A stretch of DNA of 32,000 bases from contig NZ_CP089976.1 in assembly GCF_022701215.1 (NCBI RefSeq), forward strand, positions 540,001-572,000, given 5' to 3'. The notes under the pieces are model-generated. The model had not been told where the DNA came from. It saw only the letters and a list, made by a program, of their open reading frames with translations, and made no database searches. Below are positions 27,139 to 29,157 of the stretch, piece after piece. Numbering within the stretch: position 1 is the stretch's first letter; every line of letters begins with the position of its first letter. This DNA comes from Moraxella nasovis (GTDB taxonomy: Bacteria; Pseudomonadota; Gammaproteobacteria; Pseudomonadales; Moraxellaceae). The translations under genes and the position numbers were made by a program.

Positions 27139-27166
27139 TTGACATCACGATAAAATTGCTTAAAAT
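27139..27166 (+). promoter_or_regulatory. Near-consensus sigma70-type promoter upstream of mod
   Basis: It reads TTGACA (27139-27144), a 16-nt spacer, then TAAAAT (27161-27166). Confidence 0.55.
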
Positions 27167-27168
27167 TT

Positions 27169-27210
27169 TTCGCAATTCGCAATTCGCAATTCGCAATTCG
27201 CAATTCGCAA
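27169..27210 (+). repeat. Perfect heptanucleotide tandem repeat (TTCGCAA)x6
   Basis: I counted it base by base: six exact units starting at 27169, 27176, 27183, 27190, 27197 and 27204. It lies between the promoter -10 and the mod start codon. Confidence 0.95.
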
Positions 27211-27270
27211 TGTAAGCCATAATTGCCCCCGTATTTTAATTTCCCAATTATTCAAAACAGGGGAATTAAA

Positions 27271-29157
27271 ATGACTATTCAAACCCAATCGCACACATTG
27301 TTTGATAGTCAAACTAGCGACAATCCCAAACTTACCCTACTAAAAACCCACTTCCCCCACTGCTTTGATAAAGACGGTAATTTTTTGCCTGATAAATTCG
27401 CCCAAGAATTACACGCCCAAGATATCGCCACAAGCCGTGAATACTACACGATGAATTGGCTGGGCAAATCCTACGCACGCTATTTGCGTGAGTGTCCGCC
27501 GACTACCCTCCTCTGTGAAAACACCGCCCATAACAGCCTACCTGAAAATAAAAACAGCCAAAATTTGCTAATCAAAGGTGATAATCTAGAAGTGTTAAAA
27601 CACCTAAAACACGCCTATCAAGGCAAGGTAAAAATGATATACATTGACCCGCCCTATAACACAGGTTCAGATGGTTTTGTGTATCAAGACGATCGTAAAT
27701 TTACACCCCAAAAACTTGCCGAGCTTGCCGATATGAGCCTAGATGAAGCAAAACGGGTGCTGGATTTTACCGCCAAAAAATCCAACTCGCACAGTGCGTG
27801 GCTGACCTTTATGTATCCGCGTCTGTATGTGGCAAGGGAATTACTCAAAGATGACGGTGTGATTTTTATCAGTATTGATGATAATGAACAAGCACAGCTC
27901 AAATTATTGTGTGATGAAGTATTTGGGGAGGAGAATTTTTATGGTATGGCTTCTTGGACTTCTACAACCAAAGCAATGAATGCAGGTTCAGCGAAGTTTA
28001 AAATTCAAAAATCAGATGAGTATATTCTTGTATATGGAAAAATGAGTATGCAAGATCACCCACCATTCAATTTGGAAGTGAAAGAGAAAAAAGACTACCC
28101 CTTCCAAAATGAAAATGGTGAATTTTATAGAGAAGAAGAGGTTCAGCAGAGAAAAAATACAGGAATTAAGCGTTCTGAAAAAATGGTTTTTCCTATACTT
28201 GGAGTTTACCCAAGAGATGGAAATCGTTGGACTATTGGTAATCAAACTGCGATAGATTTAGAAAAGAAAGGAGATGTTTTCGTTAAAAATAAAACCATAT
28301 TTAGAAAAATTTATAAATCTGATGAAATTAACGAAAGTCATTATCCGCTTTGGATAGACTTATCAGATACGGTTGGAACAAGCGAAAATGGTAAAGCACT
28401 AGTTTTAGAAATTCTAGGTAAAGAACATGGGTTTGAAACAATAAAACCATTAGATTTAATAGAAAAACTTTTATTTCATTTTACAGATAATAATGATGTT
28501 ATTTTAGATTTTTTTGCAGGAAGTGGAACAACAGCCCACGCTGTTATGACATTAAATGTACGACAAGAAACAAATAGGAAATATATTTGTGTTCAGTTAC
28601 CTGAAATTGTTTCCAAAGAAAGTGATGCTCATAGGGCAGGTTATAAAACCATTTTTGAAATCACCAAAGAACGCATTATCCGTTCGGCTCAAAAAATCAA
28701 AAGCGAAAATCCTGATTATGGGGGCGATTTAGGCTTTAAAATTTTTGAAACTACTGCCGATTTTCGTGCGATTGATGATGAAAATATTACGCCTAAAAGT
28801 TTGGATTGGGTGGATACATTGGCAAAACAATTAAGCGATGACGAATACCAAACGCTTTTAACCACTTGGCGTGTCTATGACGGGCAACTACTTACAGACA
28901 GCGTGCAAGCGGTTGATTTTGGCGGATATGTTGCACATCTTTGTGGTGATAATCTGTATCTTTTGGCAAGCGGTTTTGATAGCAGTCATATCAAAAATTT
29001 AATGGATAAATTGGACAACGACAAGGTATTTTTACCGACACGGATTGTGCTAAATGGTGTGAACATTGATAGCCCAAAACAAAAAGAATTAAAACAGGCA
29101 TTAGACACCTACAATAACAAGAAAAACCTAAATCTATCGCTTTTGGTGAGGTACTAA
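27271..29157 (+). CDS. mod: Type III restriction-modification DNA methyltransferase (Mod), N6-adenine beta-class
   Basis: ATG at 27271 (MTIQTQSH), with an AGGGGA SD. Motif IV is IYIDPPYNTGSDGF. An AT-rich central region follows, then motif I LDFFAGSGTTAHAV. This IV-TRD-I order is typical of Type III Mod, and res follows directly. Confidence 0.93.
   Translation: MTIQTQSHTLFDSQTSDNPKLTLLKTHFPHCFDKDGNFLPDKFAQELHAQDIATSREYYTMNWLGKSYARYLRECPPTTLLCENTAHNSLPENKNSQNLLIKGDNLEVLKHLKHAYQGKVKMIYIDPPYNTGSDGFVYQDDRKFTPQKLAELADMSLDEAKRVLDFTAKKSNSHSAWLTFMYPRLYVARELLKDDGVIFISIDDNEQAQLKLLCDEVFGEENFYGMASWTSTTKAMNAGSAKFKIQKSDEYILVYGKMSMQDHPPFNLEVKEKKDYPFQNENGEFYREEEVQQRKNTGIKRSEKMVFPILGVYPRDGNRWTIGNQTAIDLEKKGDVFVKNKTIFRKIYKSDEINESHYPLWIDLSDTVGTSENGKALVLEILGKEHGFETIKPLDLIEKLLFHFTDNNDVILDFFAGSGTTAHAVMTLNVRQETNRKYICVQLPEIVSKESDAHRAGYKTIFEITKERIIRSAQKIKSENPDYGGDLGFKIFETTADFRAIDDENITPKSLDWVDTLAKQLSDDEYQTLLTTWRVYDGQLLTDSVQAVDFGGYVAHLCGDNLYLLASGFDSSHIKNLMDKLDNDKVFLPTRIVLNGVNIDSPKQKELKQALDTYNNKKNLNLSLLVRY

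Follow-up and report, generated by a model that had tools for sequence, protein, structure and literature searches.

A (TTCGCAA)6 tract upstream of the Type III mod gene of Moraxella nasovis: counterpart of the modO repeat and a possible leader-frame switch

The 32,000-nucleotide (nt) stretch of Moraxella nasovis DNA analyzed here (contig NZ_CP089976.1, positions 540,001 to 572,000 of the forward strand; hereafter, the window) carries a Type III module for restriction and modification (R-M), whose methyltransferase gene mod is preceded by a tract of the heptanucleotide TTCGCAA, and this tract and its possible role in switching of mod are the subject of the present study. The features of the locus are collected in Table 1. 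Pfam detected the N6_N4_Mtase domain (PF01555) and the EcoP15I-type C-terminal domain (PF18273) in the product of mod. By these domains and by alignment, Mod is a Type III N6-adenine methyltransferase whose central target recognition domain is variable, and a res gene lies next to mod. Mod was 100% identical to an M. nasovis protein, itself on record from one contig, and exact-protein look-ups retrieved no further M. nasovis contig. In the alignment of Mod with its homologues the ends were conserved and the centre was variable; identity was 76% over 100% of the length, target recognition domain included, to one M. catarrhalis modO allele (P0002), and 65% to a modB-type protein of Neisseria meningitidis (P0005).

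Table 1. Position, strand and basis of the features at the mod locus (positions are those of the window; ORF, open reading frame).
Feature	Position	Strand	Basis
Candidate far-upstream promoter, TTGCAA-16-AATAAT	26919–26946	+	promoter scan, 9/12 (weak candidate)
Candidate extended −10, TGTTAATCT	27082–27090	+	motif match and alignment (putative)
Leader ORF in its present frame, through the whole tract to stop TAA 27213–27215	27114–27215	+	translation
Promoter P2: −35 TTGACA (27139–27144), 16-nt spacer, −10 TAAAAT (27161–27166)	27139–27166	+	11/12
(TTCGCAA)x6 simple sequence repeat, presumed hypermutable element	27169–27210	+	Tandem Repeats Finder, shuffles, relatives
Two TAA stops, 27213–27215 and 27220–27222, in different frames, in the conserved TAAGCCATAA block	27213–27222	+	frame table
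Predicted RNA hairpin, arm 27232–27245 pairing with 27260–27273	27232–27273	+	folding, 14-bp stem
ATGA: mod start codon overlapping leader TGA (27272–27274)	27271–27274	+	frame table
mod, Type III DNA methyltransferase, 628 amino acids, modO/modB family	27271–29157	+	Pfam PF01555, PF18273; homology
res, Type III restriction subunit; 5′ 947 codons in the window, runs off its end	29159–32000	+	ResIII, RE_endonuc domains

Tandem Repeats Finder reported the TTCGCAA array as the sole array scoring above 43 in the window (27169–27211, period 7, 6.1 copies, 100% matches, score 86). Two adjacent units, TTCGCAATTCGCAA, allowing at most one mismatch, occurred 5 times, every time within the tract, against a shuffle expectation of 0.02, and 5 occurrences were reached in none of 100 shuffles, confirming the six perfect units that had been described in an earlier interpretation made from the letters alone (hereafter, the sequence-only reading). 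The tract is C-rich and G-poor, starts 2 nt past the −10 TAAAAT, and is separated by 60 nt from the mod ATG, counted from its last full unit. That it lies outside the mod ORF, in the control region of a Type III mod gene, as the sequence-only reading had it, is thus supported, and the distance of about 60 nt to the ATG also stands; the ATG itself is at 27271, one base earlier than the end coordinate of that reading implies. No tandem repeat was found by Tandem Repeats Finder inside mod (27271–29157), which bears out the remark that the gene itself carries no tract, and the repeat within the mod frame by which a canonical phasevarion is recognized is absent. Rfam gave no family at the locus (its sole match was a meaningless snoRNA, E = 0.83), no similar DNA was found in the plasmid collection, and a full-text literature search for TTCGCAA returned primer sequences only.

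An upstream repeat of this type is known from M. catarrhalis, in which the (CAACG)n tract upstream of modO (McaC031IP) is phase variable (PMC6241649, PMC7302503) and varies in length within strain 23246 (PMC7302503); the statement of the sequence-only reading that mod switches of Moraxella are intragenic is incomplete in this respect. At the M. catarrhalis locus of P0002, (CAACG)16 stands upstream of the annotated ATG, and the gene that flanks P0002 is also found beside the other MTLPTEHLF-type mod alleles retrieved from this species, behind the (CAACG)n tract. The modO unit CAACG/CGCAA is not found in M. nasovis; TTCGCAA, however, reads as TT + CGCAA, a 7-nt expansion of the same seed. By sequence comparison, the two tracts are positionally homologous, M. 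catarrhalis having expanded CGCAA and M. nasovis TTCGCAA. The two loci share a TTGACA-16/17-TAnnAT promoter, the first TTCGCAA and the location of the tract outside the ORF, and they differ in the unit and its number (5 nt and 9–33 units in modO, TTCGCAA and 6 units in M. nasovis). Judged by this comparison, the M. nasovis tract is the counterpart of the upstream repeat that switches modO, and the idea of an extragenic methylase switch is supported. Variability and an effect on expression have been demonstrated for modO, whereas the M. nasovis locus is known from sequence alone. Since the upstream switch of modO is already published and the M. nasovis locus is its relative, the latter is not a new kind of switch; what is new here is its occurrence in a livestock-associated Moraxella species and the 7-nt unit in the modO type.

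The same upstream tract was also sought in mod homologues, and was found. M. lacunata (L097, Mod 52% identical) carries the same heptamer in 15 copies (444–548) between homologous flanks, TTGACA-16-TACAAT-AA-(TTCGCAA)15-TTAAGCCATAAC; a contig of Moraxella sp. (L238) ends inside a TTCGCAA tract; and unit numbers of about 9 and about 12 follow from two leader-like peptides, MPLDIIKSAI..(RNSQFAI)n, found in other Moraxella assemblies. Tract length therefore differs among relatives, with 6 versus 15 units of the heptamer, while the 5-nt version in modO had 15, 16, 21, 22 and 27 units in M. catarrhalis genomes (n = 5), spanning 15–27, and the tract of Pasteurella multocida had 10 to >100 units. The tract presumably varies within M. 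nasovis as well. A genome-contig scan with generic patterns yielded M. cuniculi and M. lacunata CCUG 4441; most of its matches were Type III mod genes of distant kinship, and it missed M. nasovis and M. catarrhalis.

The near-consensus promoter that the sequence-only reading placed just 5′ of the tract, P2, scored 11/12 and was also recovered as a phylogenetic footprint in a four-species alignment (M. nasovis, M. lacunata, a metagenome-assembled genome (MAG) of Moraxella sp., and M. catarrhalis). It was called likewise in M. lacunata (11/12) and in M. catarrhalis modO (10/12). Conservation extends to its hexamers and the distance between them but not to the sequence of the spacer; in this region the four species share as invariant blocks only CTTGACAT, TAnnAT at the corresponding distance and, two bases further on, TTCGCAA, and P2 is the best-conserved feature of the region. 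Beside the P. multocida tract, a P2-like promoter is absent. The hexamer CATAAT is present at 27218–27223 as had been noted, and the proposal that TTCGCA units act as movable −35 boxes for it was rejected: because the array is perfect, the distances from CATAAT to the nearest units are always 8, 15 or 22 nt, so that unit number leaves the spacing unchanged, and the hexamer reads CATAAC in M. lacunata.

In Haemophilus influenzae, 7-bp repeats between promoter and start codon of hmw1A and hmw2A grade expression, and the M. nasovis tract likewise lies between a promoter and a start codon. An effect of this sort would operate from P2 at the level of the transcript or leader, with transcription starting in the first unit, the tract making up the 5′ end of an untranslated leader, and tract length grading mRNA output, stability or translation. 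It would fit with P2 being near consensus and the best-conserved feature in three species, in all of which the tract begins 2 nt past the −10, and the C-rich, G-poor tract could be a length-dependent Rho loading site. The modO authors themselves favour a transcriptional mechanism as their hypothesis, having measured mRNA differences (PMC6241649, PMC7302503), and a later study of the modO switching mechanism was not found in the literature. However, the promoter and the first bases of the transcript stay the same whatever the unit number, and a length effect is expected to be graded, as for the AGAT tract in the untranslated leader of M. catarrhalis uspA2 (1- to 3.4-fold over 7 lengths; PMC7302503), whereas modO mRNA was 1.0, 20.7 and 1.75 at 9, 10 and 11 units, respectively (PMC7302503), that is, 1 : 21 : 1.8. 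This step is too sharp, and a tract of 45–165 bp too long, for a promoter-spacer effect. The hmw and uspA2 repeats have, moreover, no sequence relationship to the mod tracts and are graded where modO is ON/OFF, and the AGAT unit has stops in sense frames whereas the mod tracts are stop-free. A length model gives no account of the stop-free tract, the start codons and the ATGA overlap found in 7 of 7 lineages (below), nor of P. multocida, which has no P2-like promoter. We therefore regard a transcript- or leader-level effect from P2 as unlikely; in particular, the graded, hmw-like effect of leader length raised in the sequence-only reading is possible but fits poorly with the modO ratios and with the layout of leader ORF, ATGA and hairpin.

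The tract is read through by a leader ORF that can start at ATG 27114 or at an alternative ATG at 27129, and whose product with 6 units is MEKIIMKILDITIKLLKIF(RNSQFAI)2-like, ending in AM. M. lacunata has an ATG at the same place and in the same frame, encoding MPLDIIKTAITII(RNSQFAI)n. Since the unit is not a multiple of three and is stop-free in all frames, each gain or loss of a unit shifts the frame of the leader. Beyond the tract, the two TAA stops close two of the three frames, and the third is open for 20 codons, through the predicted hairpin, to ATGA. In a frame table computed for 0–13 units, the leader ended at the TGA overlapping the mod ATG with 1, 4, 7, 10 or 13 units, at TAA 27220 with 5 or 8 units, and at TAA 27213, 58 nt upstream of mod, with the 6 units of the sequenced genome. 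An N-terminal extension of Mod through the tract was considered and rejected, since TAA 27220 lies in the mod frame and closes it, so that no N-terminal fusion to Mod is possible. Two early stops, the ATGA overlap and res immediately downstream likewise occur at modO; the candidate leader start differs, lying 40–55 nt upstream of the tract and 5′ of the −35 in M. nasovis, and 8 nt upstream with a strong Shine-Dalgarno sequence in modO. As a separate observation, the 3′ junction of the tract (27210–27215) forms an ATG followed by a TAA, a start-stop pair in the present frame of the leader.

This layout recurred in seven Mod lineages, whose units are TTCGCAA in M. nasovis, TTCGCAA in M. lacunata and Moraxella sp., CAACG in M. 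catarrhalis, AATC (21 copies) in M. cuniculi, CACAG (10 to >100 copies) in P. multocida, TGCC in a metagenomic lineage (P0020) and CACGCCTA in a Logan lineage (P0058). Unit lengths range from 4 to 8 nt, none being a multiple of three, and no unit contains a stop codon in any sense frame (7/7 lineages); stops do occur, on the other hand, in three of the six further upstream repeats that are listed for M. catarrhalis. All five lineages with an assembled upstream flank have a start codon 5′ of the tract, preceded by an AAGGA Shine-Dalgarno sequence in M. catarrhalis and M. cuniculi. In all seven, exactly one post-tract frame reaches, with no earlier stop, a TGA overlapping the mod ATG. In shuffled spacers such an open frame has a probability of 0.18–0.39 per lineage, and the product over the five non-aligning spacers is 6.5e-4. 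Early stops fall within 21 nt of the tract end in six lineages, while in the P0058 lineage one frame closes at the tract junction, another has no stop in the 31-nt spacer, and the TGA overlaps an ATG one codon upstream of the annotated start. The second mod codon begins with A in every lineage. In P. multocida, the leaders are annotated by gene callers as ORFs ending at ATGA, and 6 of 9 complete tracts are in the ATGA frame (P = 0.04); the unit numbers show this modulo-3 bias but no parity bias (4 even, 5 odd, n = 9).

The spacer between tract and mod is predicted to fold into a hairpin, one arm of which (27260–27273) contains the Shine-Dalgarno sequence GGGGA and the AUG of mod, so that both are predicted by folding to be sequestered in secondary structure. 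The M. nasovis stem has a predicted stability of −13.3 kcal/mol (z = −2.5; 7 of 200 shuffles as stable), and M. lacunata and Moraxella sp. retain a homologous stem, which shows a compensatory pair and a G-U change, one of each. In every lineage the mod Shine-Dalgarno sequence, and usually the AUG as well, is in a predicted hairpin, with z-scores of −1.3 to −3.9 in the five lineages folded in a local window. The partners differ: the M. nasovis Shine-Dalgarno sequence pairs with the upstream spacer, whereas that of modO pairs with mod codons 2–4; in M. catarrhalis, P. multocida and M. cuniculi taken together the pairing is with codons 2–6 (z −2.2 to −3.9).

The same 14-bp dyad could instead be a site in DNA. 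If the tract set the helical rotation of P2, or of a protein sitting on it, relative to a site 3′ of the tract, for which the dyad 27232–27245/27260–27273 is a candidate, a loop would form only at certain lengths. Conserved sequence does flank the tract on both sides, a 5-bp unit would flip the helical face at each step in agreement with low, high and low modO expression at 9, 10 and 11 units, and a 7-bp unit would give a period of 3 units, or 21 bp; a parallel is reportedly provided by the TAAA tract acting with NadR at nadA of N. meningitidis. Against such phasing, no operator-like motif shared by the two sides of the tract was found, the dyad shifts in sequence and position between lineages as an RNA stem does and, in M. 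catarrhalis, P. multocida and M. cuniculi, involves mod codons paired with the Shine-Dalgarno sequence. Over tracts as long as those found in nature, with 10 to >100 units, the phase would be lost, and the P. multocida unit numbers are biased modulo 3 and not in parity. Helical phasing thus seems to us highly doubtful.

The tract probably acts through the short leader reading frame and not through promoter geometry or leader length, and dependence on that frame is the best-supported idea. In our judgement it is an even question whether a modO-type ON/OFF switch of the mod-res operon, set by the frame of the leader ORF, has its hypermutable element in the tract. We infer both that the leader is translated and which of its frames would be ON. 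In such a switch, slipped-strand mispairing would add or remove 7-bp units, and the site at which the leader terminates would set Mod synthesis. In the simplest version, ribosomes translating the ATGA frame would melt the hairpin and reinitiate at mod (ON), while in the other frames they would stop upstream and the ribosome-binding site would stay closed (OFF); 4, 7 and 10 units would then be ON, and the sequenced 6 units OFF. Untranslated mod mRNA would be lost by polarity or decay, a secondary effect on the level of mod-res mRNA that is proposed here as the origin of the mRNA differences at modO. Translation through the tract is the established mode in the Mod family, since in Neisseria the homologous leader is fused in frame to Mod. 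For a whole clade of Type III mod genes, to which the modO-type genes of Moraxella, those of P. multocida and relatives having 4-, 5-, 7- and 8-nt units would belong, switching through a separate leader ORF is a tentative proposal toward which we are slightly sceptical; what the leader frame would decide there is either whether ribosomes reach ATGA and open the hairpin, or where they stop relative to the hairpin, and for this, too, our confidence falls somewhat short of even. No statement of such a clade-wide leader-ORF mechanism was found in the phasevarion literature searched.

Several observations weigh against a leader-frame switch. The only experimental data, those on modO, run counter to it: with the flanks of M. 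catarrhalis, 10 units, the number with high mRNA, correspond to the frame with a stop directly behind the tract, and the ATGA frame corresponds to 11 units, which gave low mRNA; the 6 units of M. nasovis share the stop-right-after-tract frame with the 10 units of modO. None of the eight complete Moraxella tracts (five of M. catarrhalis and one each of M. lacunata, M. cuniculi and M. nasovis) is in the ATGA frame. The M. nasovis leader has a poor Shine-Dalgarno sequence (GGA, 10 nt upstream), the z-scores of the hairpins are modest, and the covariation comes from 3 sequences. In addition, P2 predicts a transcription start in the first unit, downstream of the leader start codons in M. nasovis and M. 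lacunata, and the leader ATG of M. catarrhalis coincides in part with the −10. The leader-ORF model therefore needs an upstream promoter, for which the candidates in M. nasovis, identified by sequence, appear weak.

With regard to the conflict over the ON frame, the distance from leader to mod is the same in five M. catarrhalis genomes and fits P0121, a 35-amino-acid modO leader in the ATGA frame with 11 units that is on record in 6 contigs. Strain 23246 is atypical in that its reverse-primer site differs from that of L001, and the flank is 112 nt by the published amplicon sizes versus 110 nt by the primer positions in L001; 2 extra nt in the flank of 23246 would place 10 units in the ATGA frame. 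As for upstream promoters, the far-upstream candidate overlaps an extended −10-like sequence, TGGTAGAAT, at 26935–26943 (a match to TGnTAnnnT, a motif with a frequency of about 1 per 620 nt per strand), and M. catarrhalis, Moraxella sp. and M. cuniculi have this same TGnTAGAAT box upstream of their leaders. The second candidate, TGTTAATCT, has TGCTAAAAT and TGCTAGAAT as its counterparts in the alignment with M. lacunata and Moraxella sp., and a transcript from it would include the leader start codons. Between the far-upstream candidate and the leader, two weak terminator-like hairpins were seen on the + strand (26996–27055), which may insulate the mod leader from upstream transcription.

A further alternative is that in M. 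nasovis the tract is a short relic or a neutral microsatellite, which may vary with no regulatory consequence, for example when the operon is expressed from P2 regardless of the leader. Its 6 units are the shortest complete tract in the family, the leader has a weak Shine-Dalgarno sequence, P2 is strong, and a single M. nasovis sequence is on record, all of which would agree with a relic. All six units are perfect, however, and the two TAA stops, the open ATGA frame and the 14-bp hairpin are retained, an intact layout that would not be expected of a decaying element; we consider this explanation quite unlikely.

Neisseria modB (ngoAXmod; CCCAA/GCCAA) has a homologous Mod, with the simple sequence repeat just 3′ of the start codon and the frame deciding expression (PMC5149525; PMC10123105), and the N-terminal extension QAKPSQAKPS of N. 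meningitidis P0005 is encoded by GCCAA repeats, the modB repeat (PMC5149525). In modB, as in the canonical intragenic genes modA, modD and modM and the Actinobacillus pleuropneumoniae genes modP and modQ, the leader is fused to Mod and a frameshift truncates the product, unlike in M. nasovis, where TAA 27220 closes the mod frame and a productive frame could only abut mod through ATGA. The Type III mod tract CAGCGAC(n) of Shiga-toxigenic Escherichia coli, which was compared by description only, also has a 7-nt unit with a start codon and a Shine-Dalgarno sequence just upstream, but the unit is unrelated and the tract is described within the ORF (PMC5909438). The survey and the A. pleuropneumoniae papers likewise place the tract within the mod ORF (PMC5909438, PMC10123105). 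The mod gene of P. multocida shows the same layout as M. nasovis (ATG, tract, 36-nt spacer, ATGA overlap and a hairpin over Shine-Dalgarno sequence and AUG), and differs by its CACAG unit and by having no P2-type promoter next to the tract. Ryan and Lo are said to have reported in 1999 Type III mod genes with CACAG/GCACA repeats in P. multocida and P. (Mannheimia) haemolytica, the repeat reportedly being placed in mod by reviews. A separate, overlapping leader ORF in P. multocida is not stated in the literature searched.

Many genes are reprogrammed simultaneously by phase-variable methyltransferases, which are a complication for studies of vaccines and virulence, and the cross-lineage comparison provides a concrete, testable mechanism for a switch whose action has so far only been hypothesized. 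Because surveys seek repeats inside mod ORFs, upstream tracts are missed. If the leader-ORF design is true, the ON or OFF state would be predictable from genome sequence once the ON frame is established, the presumed transcriptional switch of modO would be translational control with secondary effects on mRNA, and ORF-based surveys would miss leader-ORF switches, affecting how these are found and scored in genomes. The mechanism, if confirmed, would be a new variant of phasevarion control.

The genes just upstream of the R-M module in the window encode an IS110-family transposase (23729–24736, + strand), a SulP/STAS anion permease (24837–26441, − strand) and an ArsR-type helix-turn-helix regulator (26461–26760, − strand). 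The genes flanking the module differ species by species, indicating that promoter, leader and tract travel with it. The two leader-like peptides with about 9 and about 12 units belong to called ORFs (P0128 and P0135), which open with the leader of M. lacunata type, MPLDIIKSAI(I/T)II, and continue with 3–4 RNSQFAI repeats and then a different tail, VISTDNYCLINRLFSFF..., and by these sequences the promoter-leader-heptamer cassette may sit before another gene in some Moraxella. Mod has its central target recognition domain in common with the one M. catarrhalis modO allele (76% overall) and with modB-type proteins of Neisseria (65–66%; P0003–P0006), which suggests, at the level of sequence, that recognition domains were exchanged between genera and that the methylation motif may be the same; other M. 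catarrhalis modO alleles share just the ends with M. nasovis Mod.

Among the lineages with other units, (CACGCCTA)n was seen 31 nt before an ATGATGA start (L239:1-63) and (TGCC)n 75 nt before an ATGAGC start (L113–L116), and the short-read contigs of both lineages all break inside the tract. TTCGCAA in at least 4 copies, and up to 16 units, also occurs in >120 JGI metagenome contigs (L117–L236), with no Mod or Res homologue nearby in any of them, and ORFs with RNSQFAI repeats are present in cyanobacterial MAGs as well. The heptamer is thus a recurrent microsatellite in unrelated genomes, and its use as a signature of mod loci was rejected on account of these contigs. Finally, M. lacunata CCUG 4441 carries a perfect 13-nt repeat, ATAAGTACATGTA x12.6 (L007:1256-1419), before a different Type III mod gene (48% identical), the array ending about 20 nt before the ribosome-binding site of that gene. 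Since this unit has stops in every sense frame, the tract is truly non-coding, and it may act at the promoter level.

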